Source: a virus
Direction: 5' to 3' (one strand)
Virus record (IMG/VR): IMGVR_UViG_3300023314_000001
Location: 1-64,000 of that record
DNA: 64,000 nucleotides
The translations under genes were made by a program, and so were the position numbers. The notes beneath the pieces were generated by a model. The model made no database searches. It saw nothing but the letters and a program-made list of their open reading frames with translations, and was not told the origin of the DNA. Shown one piece after another: positions 506 to 27,569 of this stretch (position 1 is the first letter of the stretch; each line of letters starts with the position of its first letter).

Positions 506-637
506 GCCTTTTTAATCTGAAGCGTCTAACAGTATTAAATTATTGTTTTAGTGTCTTAAATCAGCTAAAAATAGCTTTAAATTGTTTGTTGTAAGTAGGT
601 TGTAATTAAAATCCGCGAAAAAGAAATAAAAGAACAG

Positions 638-922
638 TTATAAATCTAAATTATCTAAATACGTACTAGGGAATTCCCACTCTAAACAGTCAAACATATC
701 ACTAGTAAAAGATTCTACATCATTCCCGTAAGTTGTTTCTGTTTCTTCTAAATATTCTGCAACCATTGCATACAAATCCTGATATGTAAATGTATCGTCT
801 AGGTCTTCTGCATTCTCAGGTATATAACAAACGCTATTAGGATTGTTTTTAAATGCGTTATAATCTTTATAAACTATTCCATTATAGTTGTCAGTTTCTA
901 AATAAGTTTTTAATGTTGTCAT
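638..922 (-). CDS. hypothetical small acidic protein
   Basis: 94-aa ORF, strongly D/E-rich, in the co-oriented early array. Confidence 0.6.
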   Translation of the reverse strand: MTTLKTYLETDNYNGIVYKDYNAFKNNPNSVCYIPENAEDLDDTFTYQDLYAMVAEYLEETETTYGNDVESFTSDMFDCLEWEFPSTYLDNLDL

Positions 923-1042
923 TTTTCTTTTATTTAATTGTTAAAAATTGTTAAGGTTTAAATTTAAGTATTCTCCTATATAAGTTCGAAGCCTGACCGA
1001 TGGGTCATATTTTTAGTATTTTAGAAGGAATAAATGTTTGTG

Positions 1043-1060
1043 GGTGGGGTTGTCCTCACC
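1043..1060 (-). terminator. possible stem-loop after a small ORF (no U-run)
   Basis: GGTGGGG-TTGT-CCTCACC forms a 7-bp stem with one G.T pair, 24 nt downstream of the stop at 1084. There is no T-run on the transcribed strand, so termination is uncertain. Confidence 0.3.
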
Positions 1061-1083
1061 TTTAGACACCTCTAAATATCTTT

Positions 1084-1227
1084 TTAGCTTTGACAAACAT
1101 CAATGATAGCAAGGTCTTGTCTGATTTCCTCTAGTAAAGCTATTGCATCTTTATAGTCTTTGTTTTGTATTGCTTCTATAGATAGGTTTATATCTTCTAT
1201 TAGTTCTTTTAGGTCTAGTTTGTACAT
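1084..1227 (-). CDS. hypothetical small protein (47 aa, below the ORF-track cutoff)
   Basis: Hand translation gives MYKLDLKELIEDINLSIEAIQNKDYKDAIALLEEIRQDLAIIDVCQS. It fills an otherwise empty gap, and a GC-core element lies 27-33 nt upstream. Confidence 0.4.
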   Translation of the reverse strand: MYKLDLKELIEDINLSIEAIQNKDYKDAIALLEEIRQDLAIIDVCQS

Positions 1228-1289
1228 AATTTAACTGTTTTTATTTCTTTTTTGCGCGCCTTTATGTCGTGTTCCTTTACATATATACA

Positions 1290-1493
1290 CTATAATACGA
1301 CATTTGCCACTTTATAGACTATGTAATCAATAGTTTCATAAGGAATATCTCTGTATAAGGTTCTAGTTGATATACTTAATAAGGCTGATACTTGTGTTTT
1401 GAACCTATAAATAGTTATTTCCTTGGTATTTTTATTTAGTACTGCATACTTTAATGCTCTTTTAAGTACTTTCTTATTGTCTTTATGTCGCAT
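1290..1493 (-). CDS. small helix-turn-helix DNA-binding protein (putative regulator)
   Basis: 67 aa. The segment ALLSISTRTLYRDI resembles the (S/T)xxTLYR recognition helix of resolvase or excisionase-type HTH domains. A TACATTTG -7-like box lies at 1522-1529 on this strand. Confidence 0.5.
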   Translation of the reverse strand: MRHKDNKKVLKRALKYAVLNKNTKEITIYRFKTQVSALLSISTRTLYRDIPYETIDYIVYKVANVVL

Positions 1494-1549: not shown

Positions 1550-1861
1550 CTAAATAAATTTTTCTTTGTCGTTATTCATTGGTAAAATAAAATCTAACAG
1601 GTTACTAAATACTATAGGCGTTTCAGGTGCTAATAAGTTAAACCCTTCTTTTACATACCATGTTCTTGTTGTTTCTATTGCAGTTAACAGTTCTTTGTTA
1701 ATTTCTTTTTTCCGCAATAACTCATTTGCTAGTTCGTGTTTACCTCTAAAACAATTATCACAAAAGCAATTTTCAGATTTTATTGGTTTGTCATACTCTT
1801 CATAGTTAGGATTACGTTTGTCGTATATACATAACTGTTCTTTTATTTGTTGTGTAGTCAT
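1550..1861 (-). CDS. hypothetical protein with Cys cluster
   Basis: 103-aa ORF containing NCFCDNCFRG. Its start overlaps the upstream stop (ATGA). Confidence 0.65.
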   Translation of the reverse strand: MTTQQIKEQLCIYDKRNPNYEEYDKPIKSENCFCDNCFRGKHELANELLRKKEINKELLTAIETTRTWYVKEGFNLLAPETPIVFSNLLDFILPMNNDKEKFI

Positions 1862-2133: not shown

Positions 2134-2375
2134 ACCTCTATATTTTTAAATTTTCCTATCTCTGTTACTGCTTCCAAACTTGTTTTAAGTTCTTTGTCTA
2201 GTCTGTTGTTTATTTCTGTTTGTATTTCTTTGAACAGTTGTATAGCTTGTTTAGGTGTTTTTTCGTCGAATATTGAAGTAACTATTTTACTTACTTTTAT
2301 TTCGTTGTCTTTTTTAACTGTTTCTATTTTCTTTTTGCGCAAATAAGCTTGGCATTTTTTAATAAGTTTTTCCAT
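2130..2375 (-). CDS. hypothetical protein (K/E-rich, helical)
   Basis: 81-aa ORF in the array. Confidence 0.6.
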   Translation of the reverse strand: MEKLIKKCQAYLRKKKIETVKKDNEIKVSKIVTSIFDEKTPKQAIQLFKEIQTEINNRLDKELKTSLEAVTEIGKFKNIEV

Positions 2376-3344: not shown

Positions 3345-3451
3345 ATATTTAGTATTTAAATAAGTTTTTATTATTTCCGCATAAAAAATTTGAAATAGAA
3401 TCGTACTTTACATACAATACTACAATGATAATAAATAAAGTAATCATAATG

Positions 3452-3568
3452 TTAGAATTTAGAAGTTAAATAATTTAATATATATTCTGTTACTGGAATT
3501 GCTACAACTATAAAGATAATTAAACCTATTAGTAACAACATTCCTTGTCTTTCGTTTGATAGTTTCAT
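3452..3568 (-). CDS. small single-pass membrane protein (38 aa)
   Basis: Hand translation gives MKLSNERQGMLLLIGLIIFIVVAIPVTEYILNYLTSKF, with one clear hydrophobic helix. Confidence 0.35.
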   Translation of the reverse strand: MKLSNERQGMLLLIGLIIFIVVAIPVTEYILNYLTSKF

Positions 3569-3603
3569 AACTGTTTTCTTTTTTAGTTTTTATTTGCCGA
3601 AAA

Positions 3604-3789
3604 TTAAACAAAAAATTGCAGAGGTACTAAAGTATAGACTTTTTTACCCCCACTCATTTTATATTTACCTATACCAATAAGATGTGCATTAGCGCTATTA
3701 TAATTTTTCTTACCTAGTTCAATTGCTTTGTCTTTTGATAGATTATAAATTGTACTTTCATGATCTATTCTTAAAAAATAATCTTTCAT
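3604..3789 (-). CDS. hypothetical protein
   Basis: 61-aa ORF. Confidence 0.55.
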   Translation of the reverse strand: MKDYFLRIDHESTIYNLSKDKAIELGKKNYNSANAHLIGIGKYKMSGGKKVYTLVPLQFFV

Positions 3790-4280: not shown

Positions 4281-5260
4281 AATAATATTATTTGAGTTAT
4301 TGTTTTGTTCCCCCGCTCCAATTCCATTGATAGTAAATTAAACTACTGCGAGGGATAATATTTTATAGAGGTTTCATTATTTAAAGTTGCAAGAAACTCT
4401 TTAATACAACTTAGTGCTTTCTAGGACGGCGTAAAAGCTTACAAAGAATTCCTAATTAATACTAAGTTAATAAGGCTTTGTTACTCTAAGGCTGACAATC
4501 CAACACTATTACAATATGTCAAAGAATTCGCTTCGCTTTGGTTATCCCGTTGGTATTAATTCGGGCAAAGATACAACTAAGAAAGAGTATTATTATTTTG
4601 ATCTCTTTCACTTGGTAAAGGTAATTTAAAAATAATTAAAATAAAACTTGCACAATAAAAAAGATTTTTGTATAAGGCTGTTTCAATTACTTAAAGAACG
4701 TTGTCGTTAGTATTCCTTAGCGACATTACAAATATAGGTCGAACATTTAAATAAAAATGCGTAAATAAATTTTTTTATATGAAAAGATTTTCGTATACGC
4801 GTGTGTGTTCATTATATAAGAGCGTTCATTTAAACTGAACAATAACAGATTTCGCGCAAAAAACAGTTAAAAACAAAAACGGCAATTAAATTGATTTTCA
4901 AAAACACATATTATTATATAGAATAAAGACAAACAAAGAAAGTGACAAAATAAATATTCTATAGAAATAAGTATAAATAAGAAATATAAGAATAGATGAC
5001 AAGCTAAAAACACAAAGAAAAAACTTGAAAAAGTGAAACGTAAAATTAGGCTTTCTAAGAAATTTGATTTGGTTTTGATACCAAAGTATGCGGGTAGGGA
5101 GAACTTTTGTAATCGCCTGGATATCAACACTGTAGGTCATTTCTTACAGATGCACGTCTGCAATTTTCTTTAAAAAACAAAACCCCTCACAAAATTTATT
5201 GCGGGGGTACATTTTAATTGAAACTCGAAGGCAGGGGTATTTCTGATATGGGGGTTCTAT
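4281..5260. other. roughly 1-kb region without a credible ORF (candidate ncRNA, origin or packaging region)
   Basis: The only ORFs (4867..5130 and 4898..5140) are two overlapping frames of a pyrimidine-only strand. The left half (4300-4620) is visibly GC-richer. The right half (4860-5140) is A/G-only on the plus strand. Hairpins and short repeats are present. Confidence 0.6.
5170..5209 (-). terminator. rho-independent terminator after 5261..5695
   Basis: On the minus strand the sequence reads ACCCC-CGCAA-TAAATT-TTGTG-A-GGGGT. That is about 10 bp of stem with one bulge, followed by TTTGTTTTTT. Confidence 0.7.
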
Positions 5261-5695: not shown

Positions 5696-5713
5696 TTATT
5701 TTTCCCGCGATTT

Positions 5714-5857: not shown

Positions 5858-6651
5858 TCTTTTTCCGCCGAAATTAAAAATTCATGCAGCTTTTTGTTCC
5901 ATCTAGCATCATAGATAGCAGAATGCTCGTTTTCTTGTTTTGGGTAACTAGGGTGATTTTTTAAATCTAATTGTATATCTCCTCCTTCTACAATACCTAA
6001 ATAAGCTTCTTGATCAAATAATTGTTTTAAATCTCGACAATACTTGGGAAAACCTTTAGGTAAATTAATCATATTTCCAAATAACCAACAGAAAACAACC
6101 CAATCATAGTCCGCATAGTAAGCATAGAATTCTGGCTTAACTTTTTCATCATTTGAGATAACATCAAAATATTCATCCGAAGTTCCTAAATGCCAATTAT
6201 AAAATTCATCATTGGGGTCTAAAGTAAACCGTAATACTTCTGCTTTTATTTGATTATTAGTTTTACCATATTTTATTAAAAGTTTTCTCAGATTGTTAAA
6301 CGTGAACTTATGTTCTGGCGCATCTATGTAAATACCAAGCCTTATAGCTTTTTGTATGTGATTCCACTCTTTGTTATGAAGTTCGTTGTATATTGGTCTT
6401 AAAACATTGTCACGAATCCAGTAGTCTTTTATCCAATGCCCGTTTCTATGTTGATCACTTTGTTGTGAACGATTCCAAGCTTCTTTTAAATTAAAGTCTT
6501 TTGATATAAGGTATAGCTCTCGACCATCTTCACAAACTATTCCAATTGAAATCAAATCAATTGTATCTGGTGTTTCTTTTCTGAATAAACTAATTGGAAA
6601 TTTTTCTTTTTGTTTTCCTTCTAGGAATTCTGTATCTAGGTAGTATTTCAT
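5854..6651 (-). CDS. DEDDh-type 3'-5' exonuclease (DnaQ/RNase T-like)
   Basis: N-terminal YLDTEF matches ExoI D-x-E. C-terminal HSAIYDARW matches ExoIII H-x4-D. The 265-aa length is typical of phage Rv2179c-like exonucleases. Confidence 0.8.
   Translation of the reverse strand: MKYYLDTEFLEGKQKEKFPISLFRKETPDTIDLISIGIVCEDGRELYLISKDFNLKEAWNRSQQSDQHRNGHWIKDYWIRDNVLRPIYNELHNKEWNHIQKAIRLGIYIDAPEHKFTFNNLRKLLIKYGKTNNQIKAEVLRFTLDPNDEFYNWHLGTSDEYFDVISNDEKVKPEFYAYYADYDWVVFCWLFGNMINLPKGFPKYCRDLKQLFDQEAYLGIVEGGDIQLDLKNHPSYPKQENEHSAIYDARWNKKLHEFLISAEKE
5861..5875. repeat. GC-core dyad element TTTTCCGCCGAAATT
   Basis: Lies 4-18 nt upstream of the ATG at 5857, inside the last codons of the exonuclease gene. 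Confidence 0.6.
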
Positions 6652-6776: not shown

Positions 6777-6780
6777 TCTT

Positions 6781-6795
6781 TTTTCGCGCGAAATT
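6781..6795. repeat. GC-core dyad element TTTTCGCGCGAAATT (contains the perfect 12-bp palindrome TTTCGCGCGAAA)
   Basis: Spans the stop codon of 6794..7183, 5-19 nt upstream of the ATG at 6776. Confidence 0.65.
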
Positions 6796-7188: not shown

Positions 7189-7362
7189 TTAGTTTTTTAA
7201 TTCCGCGAAAATAATTCCTTGCATAATCTTTTTAAGAGAAGCTATTCCATTATCTCTCCCAGCTTCTGAACTGTAGTCTTCACTGTAAACTACTATTTGG
7301 CCATTTTGTGCTTTTACTACAAAATAATACATTCCGTTTTTTCTTTGTTTGCTTTCTATCAT
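7189..7362 (-). CDS. DUF1508/YegP-like small protein (57 aa, below the ORF-track cutoff)
   Basis: Hand translation gives MIESKQRKNGMYYFVVKAQNGQIVVYSEDYSSEAGRDNGIASLKKIMQGIIFAELKN. The pattern F-x-L-x-A-x-NG-x-I-x6-Y-x7-GI-x-S resembles one YegP repeat. Confidence 0.55.
   Translation of the reverse strand: MIESKQRKNGMYYFVVKAQNGQIVVYSEDYSSEAGRDNGIASLKKIMQGIIFAELKN
7199..7213. repeat. GC-core dyad element AATTCCGCGAAAATA
   Basis: Lies 16-30 nt upstream of the ATG at 7183. Confidence 0.6.
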
Positions 7363-7366
7363 ACTA

Positions 7367-7384
7367 TTTATTTCGCGCGATTTA
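7367..7384. repeat. GC-core dyad element TTTATTTCGCGCGATTTA
   Basis: Lies 5-22 nt upstream of the ATG at 7362, overlapping the last codons of 7368..7643. Confidence 0.6.
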
Positions 7385-7643: not shown

Positions 7644-7662
7644 ATTATTTTTCTTTATTTAA

Positions 7663-7677
7663 TTTTTTGCGGAAAAG
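7663..7677. repeat. GC-core dyad element TTTTTTGCGGAAAAG
   Basis: Intergenic, 20-34 nt upstream of the ATG at 7643. Confidence 0.55.
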
Positions 7678-8264: not shown

Positions 8265-8290
8265 AATATTTTCTTATTTATTTTTGCTCG

Positions 8291-8319
8291 AAATAAAAAA
8301 TCCCTCAATTAAGAGGGAC
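8291..8319 (-). terminator. rho-independent terminator after 8333..8620
   Basis: TCCCTC-AATTAA-GAGGGA forms the stem-loop. It is followed on the minus strand by TTTTTTATTT. Confidence 0.8.
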
Positions 8320-9161: not shown

Positions 9162-10376
9162 TTATATAATTTTATTAATTGCTTCCTCTATTGTATTTGA
9201 TTCTATAAAAAACTCTTGTAATTGTGCCGCAGAGTGAGTTTCATTGTAATTTTCTAATTCTCTCTTTTCGCCGAAAAACAATTCTAACATTCCTTCAACA
9301 TCTTCTTTTTTAGGATTATTAAAAGTTATTTTTTTATCCATTCTACCACATCTTGTCAAAGCACTATCTAATTGATCGGCATGATTACTGGTAAAGAATG
9401 TGCAAATACCTTTCTTAGAATAAGCTCCATCGAGAACATTTAAAACTGTTGAGAAATTTATTTTATCATTTATTTTTTCTCTATCATCCACTACACAATC
9501 TATATCTTCAAGTAGTAAAAAAGTATTTTCTTTTATGGTATTGAAGGCCATTCTTAACTGATCTGAATCTGTAAGAGATGCTATATTTAAAGAGTAAACA
9601 TCTTTACCTAACTTTTGAGCTATTGATAGTATAGTAGTAGTTTTTCCGTTTCCAGGAATTCCATCTGCTAAATACCCTCTTCTGTAAGGGATACCCCTTT
9701 CCAAGTAATACTCTTTAGACTCGAAGAAATTATTTATATCATCTAATAGTTCTATTTTTTCCGAATTAAAAATCTTGTCAAAAGGTTTTACTTCTATAAC
9801 TCCTGTTTTATCCCAGCCATTATAATTTCTATAGTCATATAAGTAACTCTGTGTTTTCTTTTTCTGCTTTGAATTATAGTCATTAACCACTTCATTTAAA
9901 AGACTTTTCAAAGTATTTCTATTGAAATAAGTAGTAAGTGTGTAACTTTCAATATGAGCGTTTTCTAGATAACTTGCATTTTCCATTTTTTCACGAGAAG
10001 ACTCTAAAAACACAGGAGTTCTATTTTGCCAAAAATAAAAAGCAGACTCAAAATTATTTTCTTTTACAGAATAAGTTCTTTCATCATCTCTTGATCCAAT
10101 GCTATCATGATCATCTCGTTTAACAGATAAAATTACTTTTTTATATTTATCAGAATGATTATCTCTAAGCCACTCATTAAAAATATTATATATTTCTGTC
10201 TTAGACTCAATTCGCATAGTATAAGAAAACTGTCTTTTTATTCTCCCCCAAATCCAAGGGAAAAAAGATTTAAGCCAAAAACCTAATGCCGATAAAACAG
10301 CTATAGCAGCGCCACCCTTGAAAAATTCATTATTATGTAATTGTTCTACTACAAACTGTTTTACTTGTTCTATCAT
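9162..10376 (-). CDS. membrane-anchored BCS1-type AAA+ ATPase
   Basis: N-terminal hydrophobic helix GGAAIAVLSALGFWLKSFFPWIW, Walker A GIPGNGKTT, Walker B FLLLEDID, TSN sensor and LTRCGRMD second region of homology. Confidence 0.8.
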   Translation of the reverse strand: MIEQVKQFVVEQLHNNEFFKGGAAIAVLSALGFWLKSFFPWIWGRIKRQFSYTMRIESKTEIYNIFNEWLRDNHSDKYKKVILSVKRDDHDSIGSRDDERTYSVKENNFESAFYFWQNRTPVFLESSREKMENASYLENAHIESYTLTTYFNRNTLKSLLNEVVNDYNSKQKKKTQSYLYDYRNYNGWDKTGVIEVKPFDKIFNSEKIELLDDINNFFESKEYYLERGIPYRRGYLADGIPGNGKTTTILSIAQKLGKDVYSLNIASLTDSDQLRMAFNTIKENTFLLLEDIDCVVDDREKINDKINFSTVLNVLDGAYSKKGICTFFTSNHADQLDSALTRCGRMDKKITFNNPKKEDVEGMLELFFGEKRELENYNETHSAAQLQEFFIESNTIEEAINKII

Positions 10377-10379: not shown

Positions 10380-11111
10380 TTATTTTATTTTTGTTCCCGC
10401 CCAAAATCCCCCAGCTATTGCAACAGGTATTAATATCTTGTCAAATACACTCTTAGTTTTAAGTTTTTTATTTTCTCTTTCAAGGCCTTTATTTAAATCA
10501 GACTGCACACTATTTAATTTGGCAGAGGCTTCCAAACTTTTCTCCGTAGCTTTTAAACTAATATCTTTGTCTCTAAGTTGTTCATCTTTCAAATTAATAA
10601 CACTATCTTTAGAGGCTAATTGTAAATCTTTTTCTTTTATAATATCTTGCGCTGTATTAGCGTCAGCAATAGTTTCAAGAATTTGGTAAGTCATTGGAGG
10701 TCTAACATCAACAGAATTAGGTGTAGCTGAAGCATCTTTAGATCTATAATTGTAATTTAGAGCTTCGGACACTTCAACTAAGTTTTTATTTCTAATTACT
10801 TCTTTCTGTTTTTTATTTGATTCCTGCAAAGCTAGAACTTTTTTCTCACTGTCTTTAGCTTTTTTTTGGAATTCATTAATCAACCGTTCTTTTTTCTCGT
10901 TTTCTTGGCGAAGAGAATCTCTCACTCTAAGTCTGTCTAGCTCAAAAACCTTAACTCCGTCTTGCAATTTTTTAACTTGATCTTTTAGGATTTCATTTTT
11001 CCCTGCCTGGAATTTCTGTTGATTACTTACACAACTTTTTACGCCGAAAAAAATTAGAACCAGCACTATACCTAATGCTGGCCACTTGTACTTATTTATT
11101 ATTTCTTTCAC
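10380..11111 (-). CDS. coiled-coil membrane protein (TM helix at each end)
   Basis: 243 aa with an apparent GTG start. N-terminal WPALGIVLVLIFFGV and C-terminal ILIPVAIAGGFWAG hydrophobic segments flank a long K/E/Q-rich helical region. Confidence 0.65.
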   Translation of the reverse strand: MKEIINKYKWPALGIVLVLIFFGVKSCVSNQQKFQAGKNEILKDQVKKLQDGVKVFELDRLRVRDSLRQENEKKERLINEFQKKAKDSEKKVLALQESNKKQKEVIRNKNLVEVSEALNYNYRSKDASATPNSVDVRPPMTYQILETIADANTAQDIIKEKDLQLASKDSVINLKDEQLRDKDISLKATEKSLEASAKLNSVQSDLNKGLERENKKLKTKSVFDKILIPVAIAGGFWAGTKIK

Positions 11112-13966: not shown

Positions 13967-14416
13967 CTATTTGACAAATCCTAATTTATTTTTTATTTTC
14001 CCGCAAAAAATATTTAAATCTAATCTTAATCTATCAAACCAGGTCATTTCAAGAAAATCAATAAAACTGTCTATTTCATCCGATGTTTCTGTAACGGTTA
14101 TTGTTAAGTCATCTTTTAAAAATACTGTTGTTAATCCTCTGTCTGTTACGGCCAACTTGATATCATCTAAATAAACCATTATTTCAGTGTAGATTTCTTC
14201 AAAGTCTTCATCTTCTAACTCAATACCTTTGTCTTGCTTATTTAGTCTTTCTTCTAGTTCTTCAGGTAATTTTATACCCATGTCTTCATACCAATCTACT
14301 GTTTTACCGTTGTCACAAGTTGGTGTTCTAATAGAGTCTCCTTGTTCTAATTTCTTTTCGGCCGATTCCGTCAAAACTTCTCCAAAACCAGTTAGCATTA
14401 ATCTCTTTCTTTTCAT
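13967..14416 (-). CDS. hypothetical acidic protein
   Basis: 149-aa D/E-rich ORF. Confidence 0.6.
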   Translation of the reverse strand: MKRKRLMLTGFGEVLTESAEKKLEQGDSIRTPTCDNGKTVDWYEDMGIKLPEELEERLNKQDKGIELEDEDFEEIYTEIMVYLDDIKLAVTDRGLTTVFLKDDLTITVTETSDEIDSFIDFLEMTWFDRLRLDLNIFCGKIKNKLGFVK

Positions 14417-15340: not shown

Positions 15341-15557
15341 TTATTTTTGTTTATTATTTCCACTTCGTATTCGCGCGATAAAAAATTAAAAATCCCCTAA
15401 AAACAGTAAACACTAACTGTTACCTTTCGATTGCTTGCTATCTGCTATGCGTGTCATTCTCTCACAGAATCTCTAATAAGCGGGAACTTAAATTGACCTA
15501 AAAGCAGATCTTACGGTATGCAAATTAAGTACTGTAAATTTACAATTAATTTTTTAA
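15341..15557 (-). promoter_or_regulatory. long GC-richer 5' leader/intergenic region with hairpins
   Basis: 217 nt between the PhoH stop and the next ATG. It holds a TAAATTTA box near 15536-15543, hairpin AACAGT-N8-ACTGTT (15402-15421) followed by a T-run on the minus strand, hairpin ATTCT-CTCAC-AGAAT, and a GC-core element at 15368-15387. Confidence 0.4.
15368..15387. repeat. GC-core dyad element TATTCGCGCGATAAAAAATT
   Basis: Intergenic, 28-47 nt upstream of the ATG at 15340. Confidence 0.55.
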
Positions 15558-16890: not shown

Positions 16891-17325
16891 TTATTTATTT
16901 TCTTTTTTCGCGGGATTTAGATGTTTAGAATACACAGTAGCCTTGCACCAAAAATTGTAAAAATCTTCACTGATAAGACTGTCCGAACAATATATAGCCT
17001 GACTTTCATAGTATGTTAATTCTGCTTTTGAGTAGCACCAACGGATAATTTCTTTAGAATATTGATCTCCATTTTTAATGTCTTCCAGCAAAGATTTAGA
17101 ACTACCACAATAATCAGTAAATGGATAGACTCCTTTAGATTGTCCTTTCTTTATACCACTTGTATAATTAGGTTTCATTATTGTCTTTCTACCTATGTAT
17201 CTCTTATTTTTACTTAAGTTGGTTATTTCATATATAAATCCTAGAGCATTTGGCTCGCAGTCTTTAATATTTTTAACCTCTTTTCCTTTATAAAACCAAT
17301 TTATTGTTTCTTTTTTTACGGCCAT
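16891..17325 (-). CDS. GIY-YIG nuclease-domain protein (Seg-like)
   Basis: GFIYEITNLSKNKRYIGRK matches the GIY-x10-YIG motif. A downstream conserved Glu context (LTYYESQAI) is also present. Confidence 0.6.
   Translation of the reverse strand: MAVKKETINWFYKGKEVKNIKDCEPNALGFIYEITNLSKNKRYIGRKTIMKPNYTSGIKKGQSKGVYPFTDYCGSSKSLLEDIKNGDQYSKEIIRWCYSKAELTYYESQAIYCSDSLISEDFYNFWCKATVYSKHLNPAKKENK
16903..16918. repeat. GC-core dyad element TTTTTTCGCGGGATTT
   Basis: Lies in the last codons of the GIY-YIG gene, 22-37 nt upstream of the ATG at 16881. It shares the 14-mer TTTTTTCGCGGGAT with the copy at 18021. Confidence 0.6.
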
Positions 17326-17477: not shown

Positions 17478-17781
17478 ACTTACCATATCTTAATTCATAC
17501 TCTTCTTTTGTGAATATTTTAAATTTCACTTTATTTATTTTATATTCTTTTTCGCCGAAACTTGTAGAATAAATATTGGCCACAGAAGAAATAAACTTAT
17601 AAGTTTCCTCAGACATAGGAATTGTCATAAATTGAGGTAGAATTGATTCTGGATTTACTGTGTCAAAGTACATTCCTCTTTTCATTTCATCCATAATTCT
17701 GTACATATCTTCTTCTGAGTGAATTTTTGGCTCAATATGTATTTGAATAGGAACTGTTTCTGTTATTGCGTAGTATTTCAT
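17464..17781 (-). CDS. hypothetical protein
   Basis: 105-aa ORF. Confidence 0.6.
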   Translation of the reverse strand: MKYYAITETVPIQIHIEPKIHSEEDMYRIMDEMKRGMYFDTVNPESILPQFMTIPMSEETYKFISSVANIYSTSFGEKEYKINKVKFKIFTKEEYELRYGKYEQI

Positions 17782-17954: not shown

Positions 17955-18239
17955 TTACAATGTTACTTTATTTATTCGTTCTAACTTTTCTCTTAACTGC
18001 TCTAAAACTTCTATATCATCTTTTTTCGCGGGATCAAAAACTGAAAGCAAAGAATAAGTTTTATACAAAGTAATTCCAATATTAAATTTATCATCTTCAA
18101 TATCATTTGTAATGTCATCAAATAAGTCTAAAACAATATCTGAATATGGAATCTCTGATTTATACCAAATTTCTGCTTTTAATTCTCCTATTTCTGCAAT
18201 TGTGTCTTTCATCTCTTTGTAGTATTCTAAGTATTCCAT
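17955..18239 (-). CDS. hypothetical acidic protein
   Basis: 94-aa ORF, directly adjacent to the upstream gene's stop. Confidence 0.6.
   Translation of the reverse strand: MEYLEYYKEMKDTIAEIGELKAEIWYKSEIPYSDIVLDLFDDITNDIEDDKFNIGITLYKTYSLLSVFDPAKKDDIEVLEQLREKLERINKVTL
18021..18035. repeat. GC-core dyad element TTTTTTCGCGGGATC
   Basis: Same 14-mer as at 16903, here internal to 17955..18239. Confidence 0.5.
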
Positions 18240-20178: not shown

Positions 20179-20358
20179 TTAGTTTTTTATTTCGCGCCAA
20201 ATAAATATTGGTTCTTTAAATATATTTGTATAATCATATTTAGGATTCTTCACTGTCATCCACTTTTTATCACATCTCTTACATCTGCATCTTGTTGGTT
20301 GTGACTTTGAATCATAACTGTATTTGTGCCCTATTATTTTACAGATTAATTTTTTCAT
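20179..20358 (-). CDS. small Zn-ribbon protein (59 aa, just below the ORF-track cutoff; DUF1660-like)
   Basis: Hand translation gives MKKLICKIIGHKYSYDSKSQPTRCRCKRCDKKWMTVKNPKYDYTNIFKEPIFIWREIKN. It has an ATGA overlap with the upstream gene. Confidence 0.5.
   Translation of the reverse strand: MKKLICKIIGHKYSYDSKSQPTRCRCKRCDKKWMTVKNPKYDYTNIFKEPIFIWREIKN
20184..20207. repeat. GC-core dyad element TTTTTTATTTCGCGCCAAATAAAT
   Basis: Lies in the last codons of 20179..20358 (sense TGGCGCGAAATAAAAAACTAA), upstream of the tRNA. Confidence 0.55.
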
Positions 20359-22602: not shown

Positions 22603-23535
22603 TTAACTGTTTTGATTCATCCAGAAATCAATCATATCAAACTGTAAATACTGTTTCTTTTTATAATCATTATTTACTTTAACTTCTTTTTCCGCCGAAA
22701 CCACTTCTTTAATATTATTAACTGTTGAAAAGGTAGAAACTGTTTCTTCCACTAAATATCCTTTTCTATACAATTGATTATTATCAAGCATACGTGAATT
22801 TTTAAGTTGTAAATAGTAATCGTAAGACATCTTCTCAATTTTATTGAATTGTCTTTCAGTTGTAATTAAACCTTTCTTTTTAAGCTTATTTTTCCAGTAA
22901 GATCCACTAGATTTTAAGTTTTTAATATTATTTTCCGCGCCGTGTTTCAAAACAGCAAAACCTTGAACAGATAAAACAGTTTTCTCGTTTAAAGTAAATT
23001 CTCCAAATCTTTTGCTCATAGCTTTAGCGGCCTTTAATTGTGCAGAAGTTTTTGGATCAATACCTTGTGATATTATTTCGCTTCGAGTTAGTTTTTTTCT
23101 ATATTGTTTTTGCTCTTCCAATTGTTTAGCGTGAACACGAACCAGCATTACATTAGTAGCTGTATCCGTAACATTTTTACCAATTTCAATAGGGACTAAT
23201 TTATAGCTATTGTAAAGGTCTTTAGTTTTTTGATTACCCAATAACACAAAATCCCCATTATCATCGATAAAACATAAGCCCATTTCAATTAAAACAGGTA
23301 CATATTTTTCAATAGTGTGGAGACTTAAGTTAGTTTTAGCTCTTAATAAAGAGTAACCAGAAATATTTTTATTATTTTTTGATTTATAAGAGTAATATTT
23401 AATTCCATTATCTCTATAATACTTTAAAATACTGTATACAGCAATAAGCTTATCACCTGAAAGACCAGGAAGTTCATTTCCTTTAGTCCACAAGTCAAAG
23501 TAAAGCTTAGATGCTAATCTGAATATTTTTTTCAT
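22603..23535 (-). CDS. hypothetical protein, possible winged-helix DNA-binding or replication-initiation factor (start moved to the ATG at 23535)
   Basis: The track start at 23559 is a TTG. An in-frame ATG lies 8 codons later (MKKIFRL). It is the first gene of the leftward block. Winged-helix-like segments (LIAVYSILKYY, HTIEKYVPVLIEMGLCFID) are only weak evidence. Confidence 0.6.
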   Translation of the reverse strand: MKKIFRLASKLYFDLWTKGNELPGLSGDKLIAVYSILKYYRDNGIKYYSYKSKNNKNISGYSLLRAKTNLSLHTIEKYVPVLIEMGLCFIDDNGDFVLLGNQKTKDLYNSYKLVPIEIGKNVTDTATNVMLVRVHAKQLEEQKQYRKKLTRSEIISQGIDPKTSAQLKAAKAMSKRFGEFTLNEKTVLSVQGFAVLKHGAENNIKNLKSSGSYWKNKLKKKGLITTERQFNKIEKMSYDYYLQLKNSRMLDNNQLYRKGYLVEETVSTFSTVNNIKEVVSAEKEVKVNNDYKKKQYLQFDMIDFWMNQNS

Positions 23536-23578
23536 ATTATAAAAACGCAAAAAGCCCAAATCAAACAGAACAACTAAA

Positions 23579-24284: not shown

Positions 24285-24734
24285 ATGGACGAAAAAGATA
24301 AAATAATTAAGGAGCTAGAAGCAAAACTTTTGAAGTTTAAGGAGCCATTAAACGCGCTTAATTTGAAAGTAGATTCTAAAAATAAAATAGAGAGATTAGA
24401 TAAGTTTTTAACCGCTTATTCCGAGTTAAGAATGACCGAAGAAAATAAATTGCTTCCTTCTCAAAAGCCTATTTTACTTTATTATTTATTAAAAGGTATT
24501 TCAGAAGATGTGATTCAGCTTTTAATTGAAGATAATCCCGAAAGAGCAAAAGTAAAGAAAGGTAAACAATTGACAAGAAATCATCTTCACGCCATTAATA
24601 AGAAATTAAGAGATAGAGGATATTTAGTGCGCGACGAAAAAAACTATCAAAAATTTAAATTGTCGCCAGATTTAGAAACAATAAGAAAGAAAGTCTTAGA
24701 TGAAGACTGTAAATTAATTTTAATGACGTTTTGA
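24285..24734 (+). CDS. hypothetical protein (possible DNA-binding regulator)
   Basis: 149-aa ORF, first gene of the rightward block, basic and helical. Confidence 0.6.
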   Translation: MDEKDKIIKELEAKLLKFKEPLNALNLKVDSKNKIERLDKFLTAYSELRMTEENKLLPSQKPILLYYLLKGISEDVIQLLIEDNPERAKVKKGKQLTRNHLHAINKKLRDRGYLVRDEKNYQKFKLSPDLETIRKKVLDEDCKLILMTF

Positions 24735-25195
24735 AACAACTGAGTTATTTAGATGACATATTAAAAGAAGTATTTAGAAAACATAAATTAACTTATGATT
24801 ACAAACAATGTTTAGATGGAGTTAATTGGATGTTTGAATATATTGTCCAGGAAACAAAAAACCCAGAAGTATTTGCAATAAATTTACCTTATTTAGGCCA
24901 TTTATATAAAAACCAAAACTTCTTAATAAACAGCAAAAAATTCATGGAAGTTGGATCTGAACCATATAAAAAAGTGGAAGATCAAATACAACAGATAAAA
25001 AGATTTGGAGACGAGAACGGTTGGGGAACGCCTCATTTAAAATTACCATTGTTTTTTACTTTCAATAAATATATTTGTGAAAGATTTGAAATAACAGAAA
25101 CGGCCAGAAGAATGCATAAACCAAGTCATCAAATATACGCCGCAACAGAATACATACAAAACAAAGAATATAAAAGATTAACCGAAAATAAATAA
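24731..25195 (+). CDS. hypothetical protein (TTG start as listed)
   Basis: 154-aa ORF. The TTG overlaps the upstream TGA, and the next in-frame ATG is 33 codons later. Confidence 0.55.
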   Translation: MKQLSYLDDILKEVFRKHKLTYDYKQCLDGVNWMFEYIVQETKNPEVFAINLPYLGHLYKNQNFLINSKKFMEVGSEPYKKVEDQIQQIKRFGDENGWGTPHLKLPLFFTFNKYICERFEITETARRMHKPSHQIYAATEYIQNKEYKRLTENK

Positions 25196-25203
25196 AAATA
25201 AAA

Positions 25204-26856
25204 TTGGAGAATAGAGTAGTTTACGGCCAAGAAGCCAGAAAGTTATTGAAAGAAGGAGTAGATTTAGTTGCAAATGGAGTTAAAGTTACTCTTGGTAAAC
25301 AAGGGTTAAATGTAATGTGCGTAAGAGATTTACTTTTACCTATATTAACAAAAGACGGAGTATCTGTATCTAAAGAAATTGAATCTGAAAATCCTATAAT
25401 TAACGCAGGAGCATCACTAGTAAAACAGGTTTCAAATCAAACAAATGAGGGAGCTGGGGATGGAACCACTTCTAGTGTAGTACTTGCACAGGCTATTGTT
25501 CATGAAGCAGATTTTGTTTTAAACACTGGGAAAGTAAATGCAATATCATTAAAAAGAGGACTAGATTTAGCTTTAGATTTCTCTTTAAAACATTTAAAAA
25601 CTTTATCTAGAAACTCAAGTAATTTAAAAACACTTAAAAGCATAGCAAATGTTTCTACAAATGGAGATGAAGAAATATCTGATTTAGTTGTTGAAGCTTT
25701 CAGAAAAGTAGGCAAAAGTGGAGCAATAAAGGTAGAAGAAACAGATGATATCACTTCCTCTGTAGAATCATCTTTAGGGTATGAATTAGATGTACCATTT
25801 TCTTTGGCGGAATTTATCAATGACCGAGAAAAGTTTGAAGCTGTTTTTGAAGATATGAATGTTTTAATTTACCAAGGACACCTAAAAGATAAAAGACAGT
25901 TAAATAAAGCTATTGAATTATCAACAACTAAGGATGAAAATGGAGAATTAGGAGTATTTGAAGGACTTTTAATTATTTGTGATAACATTTCTGGCCATGT
26001 TCAAAAAGAGATTTTAGAGTTTAGTTATCAAGGATTTAAAATGATGAATTTAAGATCACCTTCTTTCGGAGTAAGAAAAAATGAAACACTTAAGGATATA
26101 GCTGCTTTAATAGGAGCAAAAGTCTACAGTGAGGACTTAGGCGATGATTTAGACAATGTTACCTTAGAAGGGCTAGGACACATTGATAAAGTAATTTCAG
26201 ACGCTAATAAGTCAGTTTTAATCGGCGGAAAAGGAAATCAAGAAGAAATCAAAGAAAGAACAGCAATTGTAAAACAACAAATTAAAAACATCACTGGAGG
26301 TAAAAAAGAAACAGAATATGTAAAAGAAAGATATTCTAAATTAACCAAAGGAGTTGCTGTAATTAAAGTAGGTGGATATTCCGCGCCAGAAAAAAGAGAA
26401 AAGACAGACAGAGTAGAAGACGCTCTATGCGCAGTTAAAGCTTGTTTAGAAGAAGGATATGTAGCTGGTGGAGGTGTAACCTATTTAAACATATCAACTG
26501 CTCTTAAATCGGCTAAAATAGAGACTAGAAATAAAGATGAACAAAAAGGAGTTGAAGTTTTAATAAGATCACTTGAATACCCATTTACTCAAATTTTAGA
26601 AAACGCGGGAATAAAATATAAAAGTAGATTCTTCTGGAAAAATAAATTTATAGAAAGGATAGAAAAACAAGAATACGGTTATGGAATAGATTTAGAAAAT
26701 AATGATTTTACAGATTTATTTGAAAGAGGAATTATTGACCCAACAAAAGTAGAAAGACTAGCTCTTCAAAATGCAGTATCTATTTCAGGAACATTCTTAA
26801 CTTTAGGAGCAATTACTTATAATAACGCATCAATATTTACAGCAAATGGAAAATAA
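25204..26856 (+). CDS. groEL: GroEL/Cpn60-family chaperonin (TTG start)
   Basis: VVYGQEARKLLKEGV aligns to GroEL VKFGNDARVKMLRGV. The ATP motif is GAGDGTTSS, and AVKACLEEGYVAGGGV is also present. Length is 550 aa with no C-terminal GGM tail. Only TTG is available between the upstream in-frame stop (25189) and the conserved N-terminus. Confidence 0.9.
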   Translation: MENRVVYGQEARKLLKEGVDLVANGVKVTLGKQGLNVMCVRDLLLPILTKDGVSVSKEIESENPIINAGASLVKQVSNQTNEGAGDGTTSSVVLAQAIVHEADFVLNTGKVNAISLKRGLDLALDFSLKHLKTLSRNSSNLKTLKSIANVSTNGDEEISDLVVEAFRKVGKSGAIKVEETDDITSSVESSLGYELDVPFSLAEFINDREKFEAVFEDMNVLIYQGHLKDKRQLNKAIELSTTKDENGELGVFEGLLIICDNISGHVQKEILEFSYQGFKMMNLRSPSFGVRKNETLKDIAALIGAKVYSEDLGDDLDNVTLEGLGHIDKVISDANKSVLIGGKGNQEEIKERTAIVKQQIKNITGGKKETEYVKERYSKLTKGVAVIKVGGYSAPEKREKTDRVEDALCAVKACLEEGYVAGGGVTYLNISTALKSAKIETRNKDEQKGVEVLIRSLEYPFTQILENAGIKYKSRFFWKNKFIERIEKQEYGYGIDLENNDFTDLFERGIIDPTKVERLALQNAVSISGTFLTLGAITYNNASIFTANGK

Positions 26857-27274
26857 TGAAATTTTAGAAAATTTACAAGAAAAAATAATAAAGTTAAACA
26901 AGATTCTAGAAAAAATTAGAATTGAGAATAATGGAGAAGTTACACAAGAATACTTACAAACTAGAGAAAAATACTTCAATAAAATATCAGTATTAAGAAA
27001 AAGACAATTAAAAATTATATCCTGTGAGACTACAAAGTTACTTTCTAATATGAAAGACATAGTTTCAGATTCCAATTATGGGCTAAAAAATTATTTAATA
27101 AATACAAATGAAATTCTTTTAAAGAAATACAGGCAAATTAGAGAAATTGCTATTAAAGATATAGATAAAAATATAGCAGAGTTAGAAACTAAGATAAAAG
27201 AGGATATTTTTTATAAGAATATAGTTTGTGAAGAAAATGTCATATGTGAATTAAAATTTGAAGATGAAAAGTAA
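26846..27274 (+). CDS. hypothetical coiled-coil protein
   Basis: 142-aa K/E/I-rich ORF overlapping the groEL end by 11 nt. Confidence 0.6.
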   Translation: MENNEILENLQEKIIKLNKILEKIRIENNGEVTQEYLQTREKYFNKISVLRKRQLKIISCETTKLLSNMKDIVSDSNYGLKNYLINTNEILLKKYRQIREIAIKDIDKNIAELETKIKEDIFYKNIVCEENVICELKFEDEK

Positions 27275-27569
27275 ATTCTTAAAGTTGTCAACTTGGAAGA
27301 TGATCCTTAATTCTAGATTAATTGCTTACAAAAATAGTAAGGAGCCTTGGTGTAAAGAACGAAGAGAAATCTGTAAAAATTGTGAATATAATAGTAAAAA
27401 TAAAAGCGATTTATCTTTTAAAGAAAAATTATTTATGTCTTTACAAATAACAAAATCAATATGCACCGCGTGTTTTTGTTCAGTTGCTCGAAAGACTTTA
27501 ATTAAGCAAAGTTCGTGCGGATTAGAAGAAATAGATTTAACTCCAAAATGGCGCGAAAAAGAAAACTAA
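27258..27569 (+). CDS. hypothetical Cys-rich protein
   Basis: 103 aa with CKERREICKNCEYN ... CTACFCSV ... SSC. Confidence 0.55.
   Translation: MKMKSKFLKLSTWKMILNSRLIAYKNSKEPWCKERREICKNCEYNSKNKSDLSFKEKLFMSLQITKSICTACFCSVARKTLIKQSSCGLEEIDLTPKWREKEN
27549..27561. repeat. GC-core element TGGCGCGAAAAAG (rightward block copy)
   Basis: In the sense strand it reads TGGCGCGAAAAAGAAAACTAA at the end of 27258..27569, 21-33 nt upstream of the ATG at 27582. It parallels the 20191 copy on the other strand. Confidence 0.5.

Follow-up and report, generated by a model that had tools for sequence, protein, structure and literature searches.

The early, leftward block of an uncultured Bacteroidota-type phage (29% GC) repeats a T-run/GC-core/A-run sequence at many gene junctions, which raises the question of whether this element is a genuine signal and, if so, at which level it acts. 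The window analysed is a 64,000-nucleotide stretch (positions 1 to 64,000 of IMG/VR record IMGVR_UViG_3300023314_000001), in whose first 24 kb the original prediction had counted about 27 copies by eye.

The element is selected at the nucleotide level in the early block

With the strict pattern T{3,}[CG]{4,7}A{3,}, the early block (1-24.2 kb) holds 14 non-overlapping copies against 0.69±0.83 (maximum 4) in 300 dinucleotide shuffles, a roughly 20-fold excess, while the mirror pattern A3-S-T3, counted alongside, occurs 0 times. The ~40-kb structural block (24.2-64 kb) has only two strict copies, against 1.11 expected, and comparable sites are indeed few there. Since looser definitions yield 22-26 copies, the estimate by eye was reasonable. 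All the example strings quoted earlier were found in place, with one coordinate corrected from 5698 to 5699; the identical 14-mers at 16903 and 18021 are real, as is the 12-bp palindrome (TTTCGCGCGAAA at 6782-6793). The copies in the window are as follows, with sequences on the sense strand.

1248..1260, minus: weak T arm; GGCGCGC-AAAAAAGAA, then AAAAACAGTT; core end 26 nt upstream of ATG 1227
1706..1715, minus: within gene 1550-1861, away from starts; ttGCGGAAAAAAGAA
1882..1894, minus: last codons of gene 1858-2133 (...FREKDLKTERK*); TTTCCGCGAAAAAGAT; core end 25 nt upstream of ATG 1861
2332..2343, minus: within gene 2130-2375, ~38 nt from its 5' end; TTTGCGCAAAAAGAA; kept in relatives L001, L003 and L004
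2788..2802, minus: within gene 2583-2834, ~39 nt from its 5' end; TTTCGCGGAAAAAAA; the homologous protein of L001 begins at an ATG directly after the element
3374..3388, minus: intergenic; ttttttatGCGGaaataataaaaa; 32 nt upstream of ATG 3344
3593..3603, minus: TTTTCGGCAAAT; 27 nt before ATG 3568, the start of a conserved hydrophobic 38-aa ORF
4850..4863, minus: in ORF-free stretch 4281-5260; CTGTTTTTTGCGCGAAATCTG; outer CTG box on the upstream side
5699..5709, minus: intergenic; aaaatCGCGGGAAAAAtaa; core end 8 nt upstream of ATG 5695
5860..5873, minus: last codons of gene 5854-6651 (...SAEKE*); TTTCGGCGGAAAAAGA-ATGA; core end 7 nt upstream of ATG 5857
6779..6793, minus: intergenic, directly 3' of the TAA stop of gene 6794-7183; TTTCGCGCGAAAAAAGA-ATG; contains the 12-bp palindrome; 8 nt upstream of ATG 6776 (in relatives, 23 nt upstream of the same gene, with cores GCGCG or CGCG)
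7199..7213, minus: degenerate (...FAELKN*), core 7203-7207; ttttCGCGGaattaaaaaac; 19 nt upstream of ATG 7183
7367..7384, minus: degenerate (...NRAK*), core 7374-7379; aaatCGCGCGaaataaatagt-ATG; 11 nt upstream of ATG 7362
7663..7676, minus: last codons of gene 7645-7803 (...FRKKLNKEK*); TTTTCCGCAAAAAA; 25 nt upstream of ATG 7643
8279..8298, minus: degenerate; attttttatttCGAGCaaaaataaataag; core CGCGC in relatives; between terminator hairpin 8299-8320 and a canonical promoter (-7 box 8242-8235)
9265..9278, minus: in an AAA/BCS1-like gene whose 3' end is 107 nt away; TTTTTCGGCGAAAAGA; kept in 4 relatives
10393..10405, minus: last codons of gene 10380-11111; ttttGGGCGGGaacaaaaataaaataaagt-ATG; 19 nt upstream of ATG 10376
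11036..11053, minus: degenerate; tttttttCGGCGtaaaaag; its T-run doubles as the U-tract of terminator-like hairpin 11058-11083
13996..14010, minus: end of gene 13967-14416; TTTTTTGCGGGAAAAT; core end 39 nt before the canonical -7 box (TATATTTG, 13960-13953) of gene 13908
15368..15385, minus: intergenic, core 15372-15377; tttttatCGCGCGaatacg; 31 nt upstream of ATG 15340
16903..16914, minus: last codons of SegE-like endonuclease gene 16891-17325 (...PAKKENK*); atCCCGCGAAAAAAGAA; 27 nt upstream of ATG 16881
17548..17560, minus: in gene 17464-17781, whose 3' end is 89 nt away; TTTCGGCGAAAAAGAA; kept in 5 relatives
18021..18032, minus: in gene 17955-18239; 14-mer identical to the 16903 copy
20190..20201, minus: end of gene 20179-20358; TTTGGCGCGAAAT; core end 62 nt before tRNA-Met (20130); exact start of a homology block common to relatives
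22687..22700, minus: in gene 22603-23559, whose 3' end is 89 nt away; TTTCGGCGGAAAAAGAA
27549..27569, plus: sense-oriented copy in the rightward block, without a T arm; aaaatGGCGCGAAAAAGAAAACTAAAAAC; core 27550-27555, its end 26 nt before ATG 27582

Coding sequences contain 11 copies, compared with 2.56±1.36 in within-gene synonymous shuffles and 1.67±1.27 in pooled ones (P<0.002; overall a 4- to 7-fold excess), and the codons used there are rare, as had been noticed for GCG (GCG 33/267 Ala, CGC 9/270 Arg, CGG 3/270 Arg). T arms and A arms are paired around GC blocks (Fisher P=6e-4). These results confirm that the element is real and is selected at the nucleotide level in the early, non-structural leftward block.

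The element is clade-specific and biased towards gene junctions

The element is clade-specific. Its density is 0.4-0.9 per kb in a clade of ~130-145-kb IMG/VR phages. Other low-GC phage loci, ~3.4 Mb in all, have ~0.04 per kb, which is 12-fold less, and TSA and AST patterns are about equally frequent there; the element was not found in Cellulophaga phage phi4:1. Clade-wide, the first ATG of an ORF lies 3-40 nt downstream of 33 of the 90 non-redundant copies (37%), compared with 9% of random positions, and the element-to-ATG distance has its mode at 23-28 nt. A junction bias is also evident within genes, where 6 of 12 in-CDS copies fall in the last 35 nt (binomial P=3e-4). The claim that most copies lie 3-45 nt upstream of a start proved too strong, because only about half of those in the window (~13 of ~26) are within 45 nt.

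At 29% GC, runs of T and of A are frequent, and sites in close relatives are not more conserved than their flanks (88% versus 91% identity), the pattern class being mostly retained as the core sequence changes. Both facts would suit a functionless side effect of base composition or of coding in an AT-rich genome. Yet this reading is refuted by the dinucleotide-shuffle, synonymous-codon, arm-pairing, density and positional tests, and we regard it as extremely improbable.

A linear, asymmetric signal without RNA structure

The element is a linear signal of ~35-40 bp, in which a T-rich arm is followed by a GC-only block of 4-6 nt, invariably containing both CG and GC, and then by an A-rich arm. 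Early genes are encoded by the minus strand, and read in their sense direction the element is asymmetric: the pattern S4-7 A4-7 GA is present 13 times in the early block of the window against 0.81 expected, and its mirror once. T-enrichment extends to about -21 although the strand is otherwise A-rich, the base at -5 is C in 58 of 90 copies, and T-12/A-11 appear only at background frequency (7 of 90). Core length varies and base-specific information is low. Either arm may carry an outer box, CTGTTTTT...AAAAACAG, at +14..+16 counted from the core; on the coding strand this box is downstream of the core in 21 copies and upstream in 12. The original prediction of dyad symmetry survives in part: some palindromes are real, but only 4 of 40 cores are palindromic and the symmetry is mostly one of composition.

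Complementarity between the two arms of one copy is no higher than between arms taken from different copies, and the element folds with an MFE of -3.7, versus -4.5 for random 55-mers. It is neither a hairpin nor a terminator, in agreement with the earlier view that the element is not a hairpin-plus-U-run terminator.

The element is positionally equivalent to a Bacteroidia -7 box

Counted from the TTT[S] base, the ATG lies a median of 28 nt away, and the canonical TAHHTTTG boxes of these genomes are a median of 24 nt from theirs (Mann-Whitney P=0.14). Because the element sits where promoters sit in these organisms, a phage-specific transcription signal appears the most likely reading, although we hold it tentatively. 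In F. johnsoniae, 4-5 nt separate the -7 box from the TSS, and promoters carry AT-rich motifs at -18 and -28 (PMC6847099). One ortholog pair with 95%-identical protein shows a swap in exact register, in which L055 has tattcTTTTTCGCCGAAAAAtaaattt...ATG where L135 and L137 have agttgTATATTTGttaaagaaataaattt...ATG; the element stands in for the TATATTTG box, with TTTC on TTTG, GCCG on the 4-nt spacer and the first A on the predicted TSS. Similarly, gene 7643 is preceded by the element in the window and its L003 homologue by a canonical TAAATTTG box. Such substitution occurs in only 2 of 36 ortholog groups, and the exact-register swap is a single independent case. Canonical promoters of the phage also grade into the element (TAAATTTGCGGA at 32632, TATATTTGCG at 23828), a tRNA gene is preceded by a copy, and the leader after the element matches the A pattern of Bacteroidia initiation regions. 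The tolerated core length of 4-6 is what would be expected of box-to-TSS spacing, unlike a rigid dimer site. Sites had been judged too close to starts for -33 boxes, which is correct; setting a promoter role aside goes too far, since the geometry fits the -7 box/TSS position.

Counting against a promoter, ~60% of copies are start-distal, some deep within genes and others preceding a canonical -7 box by 38-51 nt, and in three copies the ATG follows after only 7-8 nt. Moreover, most sigma-recognised elements are base-specific, whereas this one is compositional (GC-only block, T and A tracts). With T-12/A-11 at background and mostly C at -5, host sigma-A should not use the element as described. 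The clade specificity, which speaks for the promoter reading, points to a phage factor and away from host housekeeping machinery. Among 57 early-block and 10 neighbouring-region proteins, no sigma-like, RNAP or transcription-factor domain was found, and four large early proteins have no sequence relatives in the PDB.

Operator, RNA-level and recombination readings

A phage DNA-binding protein may instead bind the T-arm/GC/A-arm dyad at many junctions, as at an operator or 'stoperator', and block elongating RNA polymerase or modulate neighbouring promoters, for example in shut-off or timing of early cassettes. The stoperators of Cluster A mycobacteriophages are a precedent (PMC9283540). The dyad-type composition with an outer box on either arm and in mixed orientation suits this reading, as do the many dispersed, clade-specific copies confined to the non-structural arm, some of them just upstream of canonical promoters (~-50 to -65) and one between a terminator and a promoter, a place expected to see little transcription. 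However, variable and rarely palindromic cores fit a rigid dimeric operator poorly, base-specific information is scant beyond the T/S/A classes, and distances to the -7 box (38, 39, 43, 44, 49 and 51 nt, counted by hand) are not phase-locked. Exact-register replacement by a -7 box is not predicted either. None of the early proteins showed a DNA-binding domain; the one at 1290..1493, earlier proposed as an HTH binder, has no HTH and no other Pfam or PHROG match. We consider an operator possible but less probable than a promoter-like signal.

The strand asymmetry would also agree with an mRNA-level element, where the U-run/GC/A-run is a processing site cutting the polycistronic early transcript into units with A-rich leaders, or a translational operator whose repressor binds near the initiation region, on the model of T4 RegB/RegA. 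The start-associated copies, 7-38 nt upstream of their starts, border a strong Bacteroidia initiation region on its 5' side, and copies lie inside the 3' ends of upstream genes in tightly packed operons, ATGA overlaps included; an exoribonuclease-like protein is encoded in the block. This is nonetheless unlikely: RNA structure is absent, orthologs differ in their spacing to the ATG (gene 6776, 8 versus 23 nt), in other regions of the genome the outer box is inverted with respect to the direction of transcription, and copies before the predicted TSS of a canonical promoter, just past a terminator, would scarcely appear in transcripts.

Mosaicism is strong in the early block, and 5' ends of homology blocks fall within 20 nt of a copy in 6 of 39 cases versus 1.6 expected (P=0.0065); at 2795 and 20193, the element marks the point where differing upstream sequences meet one shared downstream sequence. 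Micro-homology for swapping small gene cassettes among related phages, for which the PeSL cassettes of T4-type phages are a precedent (PMC2839356), could therefore be its role, and might coexist with that of a promoter. But breakpoints mostly track start codons in general (19/39), leaving a modest enrichment at the element; 3' ends are not enriched (2/30 versus 1.2 expected), the element offers merely ~12-16 nt of low-complexity sequence, and any conserved junction signal would passively yield the same pattern. We thus find a recombination linker quite improbable.

Discussion

In the promoter-like reading, the element would act as a DNA signal at the level of transcription. The last three T's of a T-rich arm of ~16 nt, together with the first G/C, would take the place of TTTG in the Bacteroidia -7 box, and the remaining 3-5 G/C bases would form a GC-only discriminator. 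Transcription would start in the A-run and produce a short, A/U-rich leader of ~8-28 nt, which could double as a translation-initiation region well suited to Bacteroidia (A at -13..-11, -8, -6 and -3). Because T-12/A-11 are missing and -5 is mostly C, not G, recognition would need a phage-encoded or phage-modified specificity factor; initiation by RNA polymerase at the element and the involvement of such a factor are what we infer from position and composition. For this clade of phages, the element would most likely, if tentatively, be a phage-clade-specific, promoter-like DNA signal for small early/middle gene cassettes.

Genome setting and host

The window has a GC content of 28-35%. Genes lie on the minus strand throughout 1-24.2 kb, the early block, whose products include a RecA-like protein, PhoH, an AAA/BCS1-like ATPase, an exoribonuclease-like protein and a SegE-like endonuclease, and which is also rich in small ORFs without family matches. 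From 24.3 kb on, genes are on the plus strand: first a short group including a GroEL-like gene, then terminase, portal and virion proteins. The DNA resembles that of cultured phages in one short stretch only, shared with Cellulophaga phages, and the nearest sequences are IMG/VR contigs of ~130-145 kb.

Features of the window (coordinates, strand, description)
32632, 35547, 40194, 55472 (plus) and 23828 (minus): near-identical host-type promoters, AAATTAAGTAATTTG-N19-TAnnTTTG
24260, 38833 (plus) and 24143, 22506, 13960, 8242, 4736, 4573, 1529 (minus): further TAnnTTTG boxes before other genes
8242-8228 (minus), 38833-38847 (plus), 55472-55486 (plus): TAnnTTTG, then exactly 4 nt, then ATG
25204-26856 (plus): GroEL-like phage chaperonin, tblastn matches to Cellulophaga and Bacteroides phages
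16891-17325 (minus), 19667-20044 (minus), 28727-29863 (plus), 38845-40179 (plus): homing-endonuclease-like genes (SegE-type GIY-YIG; weak HNH; DUF723/treble-clef/T5orf172-like)
14417-15340 (minus): dATP/dGTP diphosphohydrolase N-terminal domain (MazZ/DatZ-type)
20056-20130 (minus): tRNA-Met (CAT), in the middle of the early block
3452-3568 (minus): conserved 38-aa hydrophobic ORF MKLSNERQGMLLLIGLIIFIVVAIPVTEYILNYLTSKF, 27 nt downstream of an element copy
4281-5260 (minus): contains a terminator-like hairpin near 5205-5170, the -7 boxes at 4736 and 4573, and the element copy 4850-4863

Because the structural block carries textbook Bacteroidia promoters, AAATTAAGTAATTTG-N19-TAnnTTTG, together with ordinary hairpin-plus-T terminators, the host is very probably a member of the Bacteroidota. 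Members of this promoter family are placed at the head of structural-gene operons and of one leftward unit, so the late genes appear to be served by consensus host promoters. In Flavobacterium johnsoniae the -7 box reads T-12 A-11 H H T-8 T-7 T-6 G-5, followed by 4-5 nt to the transcription start site (TSS) (PMC6847099). At three genes of the window the box is followed by exactly 4 nt and ATG, and leaderless mRNAs are therefore predicted for them; such mRNAs are uncommon in F. johnsoniae, where 87% of leaders exceed 10 nt.

The early block is strongly mosaic, and the free-standing homing-endonuclease-like genes fit with this mosaicism. The MazZ/DatZ-type domain raises the question of a modified nucleotide pool. 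The ~1-kb stretch 4281-5260 holds no credible ORF, parts of it are kept in relatives, and it may encode one or more ncRNAs; an Rfam search of this stretch gave no match. A TTG-start ORF first called over the tRNA-Met gene is spurious, and another (3459-3611), overlapping the 38-aa ORF, is probably so.

The element is enriched in the early block and at gene ends

The original prediction had described a T-run/GC-core/A-run element concentrated at gene junctions of the early block, and each string that it quoted was recovered at its position within one base. With the strict pattern T{3,}[CG]{4,7}A{3,}, we found 14 copies in the leftward 24.2 kb compared with 2 in the remaining 39.8 kb; dinucleotide shuffles gave expectations of 0.69 ± 0.83 in the early block and 1.11 in the late block. 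The mirror pattern (A-run, GC, T-run) yielded 0 copies. T-richness on the 5' flank and A-richness on the 3' flank co-occur across all GC-only blocks of the early region (25 observed; odds ratio 3.8, P = 6e-4).

Within coding sequences there were 11 copies, whereas synonymous shuffles gave 2.6 (within-gene) or 1.7 (pooled), and 0 of 500 shuffles reached 11. The in-gene copies are unexplained by protein sequence and codon usage, and the codons that they employ, GCG, CGC and CGG, are the rarest in the block. Three copies are wholly intergenic, and half of the coding copies (6 of 12) lie in the last 35 nt of their gene (P = 3e-4). Both the enrichment and the junction bias proposed originally thus held up, and a by-product of base composition is excluded, since the shuffle and synonymous-codon nulls were exceeded. 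In relatives aligning across a site, identity is 88% over the site itself (10-12 nt) and 91% over its flanks, a divergence too low to reveal constraint. The core sequence varies while the pattern class usually persists, as at the junction before gene 6776, where CGCGCG, GCGCG and CGCG occur.

The element belongs to one phage clade

Four relatives, found via the AAA protein, carry 7-13 copies per 12-21 kb and 1-2 mirror copies. An exact 16-mer scan of IMG/VR returned the same group of 29-30% GC contigs as motif-rich (0.36-0.87 per kb), the remaining matches being single chance matches. In 21 kb of a remoter member, for which a neighbouring gene gives 68% protein identity, there are 11 copies and 0 mirrors. 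The element runs on for at least 20-30 kb past the left edge of the window in the 141- and 143-kb contigs.

Outside this group, the comparable 40.6-kb early region of Cellulophaga phage phi4:1 holds 1 copy against 0.9 expected. Two sets of loci from other phages, brought in through conserved proteins, gave ~0.04 copies per kb each: 159 loci (2.18 Mb; pattern 82, mirror 77) and 80 loci (1.29 Mb; pattern 67, mirror 44), so that pattern and mirror are about in balance there. A host-general signal is rejected on these counts. As phi4:1 and the control loci show no enrichment and the relatives do, the element belongs to one phage clade and not to Flavobacteriia phages or hosts generally. A literature search found no description of the motif.

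About 25 kb to the left of the window and in the same transcription block, the 141-kb relative encodes a 310-aa reverse transcriptase (RVT_1; locus L133, 3477-4409), which has ~195 IMG/VR relatives, mostly on ~43-kb contigs. Near it lie RNR subunits, a PolB-exo-like protein and a T7 gp5.9-like domain.

A GC-only core of variable length between T-rich and A-rich arms

On the coding strand the consensus reads ttTTT-[C/G][CG]3-5-AAAAA(G)AA. Of 40 non-redundant copies, 16 have a 4-nt core, 19 a 5-nt core and 5 a 6-nt core; these comprise 18 distinct core sequences, 4 of them palindromic, and every core contains a CG step and a GC step. The strand is otherwise 41% A; upstream of the core, T enrichment extends to about -21 and dips at -14/-15. 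This side is AT-rich with a ~10-nt periodicity, and the 3' side is nearly free of G and C, with A-tracts ~10 nt apart. In the window the long A-arm is nearly always downstream (S4-7 A4-7 GA, 13 vs 0.81 expected; mirror, 1); in loci left of the window, most copies have their long arm upstream. An outer ACAG box lies 14-16 nt from the core in ~14% of arms. There are 21 copies with this box downstream, 12 with it upstream (as CTGT) and 3 that have it on both sides; control words gave 0 and 2.

These arms bear on the possibility that the element is an operator or roadblock site for a phage protein, which we consider rather unlikely. Such a site would suit the dyad-like character of the arms, an outer box found in two placements and one copy situated between a terminator and a promoter. 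The variable core fits it poorly, however: a dimeric-repressor operator or stoperator calls for base-specific half-sites at fixed spacing, and these were not found among cores of 4-6 nt with 18 sequences and 4 of 40 palindromic, nor in an outer ACAG confined to +14..+16 in only ~14% of arms.

An RNA or DNA hairpin, or a cruciform, is ruled against by folding. Arms of the same copy form 7.4 pairs, compared with 8.3 for arms taken from different copies, and the MFE is -3.7 kcal/mol, compared with -4.5 for random 55-mers. An intrinsic terminator is rejected as well: the order T-run, GC, A-run is the reverse of a terminator, there is no hairpin, and a terminator-like hairpin precedes the T-run in 1 of 184 cases vs 0.9% of controls. 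A T-run that also serves as the U-tract of a terminator was seen in just two window copies, at 8279-8298 and 11036-11053. Rfam matches were to tRNA only, which rejects a known RNA family.

There is a slim chance that the element, instead of being a promoter, punctuates transcription in either direction without a hairpin. RNA polymerase would run from a long U/T-tract, with a weak hybrid and a T-rich non-template strand, into a GC-only clamp, and the opposite strand presents the mirrored arrangement. Polymerase arriving from either side would then pause or terminate unless a phage factor permitted passage, and expression of the early cassettes would depend on antitermination.

Position relative to start codons

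In 33 of 90 non-redundant copies, an ORF of at least 40 aa has its first ATG 3-40 nt downstream, as is the case for 9% of random positions. The distance from element to ATG is 7-38 nt, with 21 of 37 at 21-28 nt and a mode of 23-28. Further copies form a second group, 60-100 nt from the next start. For several of them a canonical promoter intervenes, its -7 box lying 38-51 nt downstream of the core. Other copies are intragenic, often within ~110 nt of the 3' end of the gene, and ~60% of all copies are not adjacent to a start.

When leaders were aligned on the ATG, A was found at -13..-11, -8, -6 and -3. A at these positions enhances initiation in F. johnsoniae (PMC6847099), and because of this match the 'A-run' of the original prediction and our 'box 2' largely represent a strong Bacteroidia translation-initiation region. 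We reject 'box 2' (AAAAACAGTT) as a second promoter element: its A-patch coincides with the A-rich zone (-14..-11) of the Bacteroidia initiation region. Nor is it element-specific, because AACAGTT is over-represented on the coding strand window-wide. This word is in 4- to 8-fold excess in both blocks (24 and 21 copies), and its reverse complement is far rarer on the coding strand (8 and 1); the excess may reflect codon or peptide bias or a polar signal. A Shine-Dalgarno-like site is rejected, as the distance to ATG varies between orthologs, the cores are not complementary to the anti-Shine-Dalgarno sequence, and Bacteroidia ribosomes ignore Shine-Dalgarno sequences.

The sense bias within the window would suit a processing or translational site acting at the RNA level, of the RegB/RegA type. 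Such a site is nevertheless improbable, given that the element has no structure, that its spacing to ATG is not conserved, that inverted copies exist and that some copies should escape transcription. Homology blocks between relatives begin within 20 nt of a copy in 6 of 39 cases, against 1.6 expected, and 19 of the 39 5' ends are simply at start codons; that the element is a recombination linker, possibly on top of a regulatory role, seems very unlikely.

A tentative promoter reading

Bacteroidia primary-sigma promoters consist of a -33 TTTG and a -7 TAnnTTTG, the latter revised to TAHHTTTG (Baez et al. 2019, PMC6847099). The element may, tentatively, be a phage-specific promoter-like signal that keeps part of this geometry. 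Its TTT[S] would occupy T-8..G-5, the remaining core would be the spacer between box and TSS, and the A-run would provide the start; a block of 3-5 nt followed by A would match the 4-5 nt between box and TSS. Like the TTTG of -7 boxes, TTT[G/C] of the element keeps the same distance to the start codon: its last base lies a median of 28 nt from the ATG, compared with 24 nt for canonical TAHHTTTG boxes of the same loci (P = 0.14). The implied leaders are predicted to be 8-28 nt long for the element and 0-27 nt for canonical boxes. In placement, the element thus resembles a -7 box both in its distance to ATG and in the 3-5 nt before the A-run, the TSS position being a predicted one.

In one ortholog pair, whose proteins are 95% identical and whose 27-nt leaders are the same, box and element are exchanged. 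Locus L055 of one relative has tattcTTTTTCGCCGAAAAA, and L135 and L137 of two others have agttgTATATTTGttaaagaaa; TTTC aligns with TTTG, GCCG covers the 4-nt spacer and the first A coincides with the predicted start. This exact-register swap is a single independent event. The homolog of gene 7643 has the element in the window and in relative L001, but a TAAATTTG box in relative L003, in a different register. The phage uses canonical boxes elsewhere, and some of its canonical promoters have a GC-rich spacer too, such as TAAATTTGCGGA at 32632. The promoter model tolerates a variable core length, and it would account for the element's place at the 5' edge of exchangeable cassettes and before the tRNA gene.

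T-12 and A-11 are nearly invariant in host promoters; of the 90 non-redundant copies, 7 have TA at these positions, which is no more than the TA background (0.105). TTT at -8..-6 follows from the search pattern itself; at the position after it, 32 of the 90 copies have G and 58 (64%) have C. A -33 TTTG at canonical spacing was not found with the element. Judged by sequence, the element falls outside the Bacteroidia sigma-A consensus class, because T-12/A-11 are at background, C stands at -5 in 64%, the spacer is GC-only and the -33 TTTG is absent. A sigma-70-type promoter scan gave fewer matches than in shuffles and was uninformative here.

The host holoenzyme as described should not use such an element, so the promoter reading needs a phage factor. 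Candidate genes for it would be those behind the canonical promoters at 24143, 23828 and 22506, namely ORFs 23857-24111, 22603-23559, 22176-22448 and 21406-22173. We found no sigma, RNA polymerase, HTH or other DNA-binding domain among ~57 early proteins (Pfam, PHROGs) and ten proteins of the neighbouring region, and PDB sequence searches with four large early proteins returned no relatives; as most early proteins have no matches whatever, these negatives amount to absence of evidence. The protein at 1290-1493 (minus), put forward earlier as an HTH regulator, has no Pfam or PHROG match; a host-type -7 box, TACATTTG, precedes it at 1529. We hold the promoter reading at this tentative level because T-12/A-11 and a factor are missing, ~60% of copies are off-start, the in-register swap is single and the conserved features of the element are compositional.

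Comparison with known systems

T4 has middle and late promoters, with the MotA box and the gp55 element TATAAATA, together with sigma appropriation. Like these promoters, the element would be a phage-specific class that keeps part of the host geometry while a phage element replaces a host one, and it is dispersed before many early/middle genes; unlike these, it shares no sequence similarity with them, and host phylum and sigma differ. No MotA-, AsiA- or gp55-like protein was found in the proteins searched.

PeSLs of T4-type phages combine a host-type early promoter with a stem-loop (Arbiol et al. 2010, PMC2839356). They likewise are short conserved regulatory sequences beside small variable ORFs in hyperplastic early regions (PMC2839356). 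PeSLs are found at insertion or replacement boundaries (PMC2839356), and the association of the element with breakpoints is modest; the element has neither stem-loop nor host-type box. The SAS of Cluster K mycobacteriophages is a well-conserved asymmetric 13-mer, 3-7 bp from the start, that holds the Shine-Dalgarno core (Pope et al. 2011, PMC3203893). SAS and ESAS share with the element a repeated, clade-specific occurrence in the non-structural arm only, upstream of many unrelated genes, an occasional overlap with the upstream stop codon and an unknown function, and the inverted repeats of ESAS also lack hairpin covariation (PMC3203893). The element, in contrast, is defined by composition, sits at 7-38 nt from the start, bears no relation to Shine-Dalgarno sequences and is off-start in ~60% of copies.

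Cluster A stoperators are 13-bp asymmetric, base-specific sites in one orientation, bound by a known repressor in temperate phages (PMC9283540, PMC6550527); the phage of the window looks lytic. Tens of these short lineage-specific sites, read by a phage protein, are dispersed through transcription units at gene junctions, as the element is (PMC9283540, PMC6550527). The element has no base-specific consensus, and no repressor was found among the proteins searched. Both stoperators and SAS/ESAS resemble the element in their genome-wide spread over the non-structural arm. Halovirus HF2 also has classes of short intergenic repeats, shown to be promoters, but it is archaeal, and its repeats are well conserved, 29 and 58 bp long, with AT-rich TATA-like motifs (PMC8707807). 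By analogy, the element would work most like a phage-specific promoter class such as T4 middle/late promoters, or like junction signals of the PeSL kind, dispersed along the genome. It lacks the features that define PeSLs, SAS/ESAS and stoperators.

Implications for Bacteroidota phages

Bacteroidota have an unusual sigma factor, -33/-7 promoters and translation without Shine-Dalgarno pairing, and to our knowledge almost nothing is known about the timing of gene expression in their phages. The element is most likely a lineage-specific, dispersed transcription signal of the phage early region. Its interest lies mainly in that no counterpart has been described for Bacteroidota phages and that 5'-end mapping can test it directly. 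A clade of ~140-kb marine-type phages appears to use textbook host promoters for structural genes and places a different, clade-specific signal before dozens of small early genes. If the element is an operator or a pause site, it would be a new case of genome-wide transcriptional punctuation beyond mycobacteriophages. If it is a promoter, a phage-encoded re-targeting of Bacteroidia RNA polymerase would be implied, comparable to MotA/AsiA or gp55 but in a new phylum. The signal would then offer a sequence handle to find the factor and to predict early/middle genes in phage genomes from metagenomes, and it could serve to build phage-inducible parts for expression in Bacteroidota.
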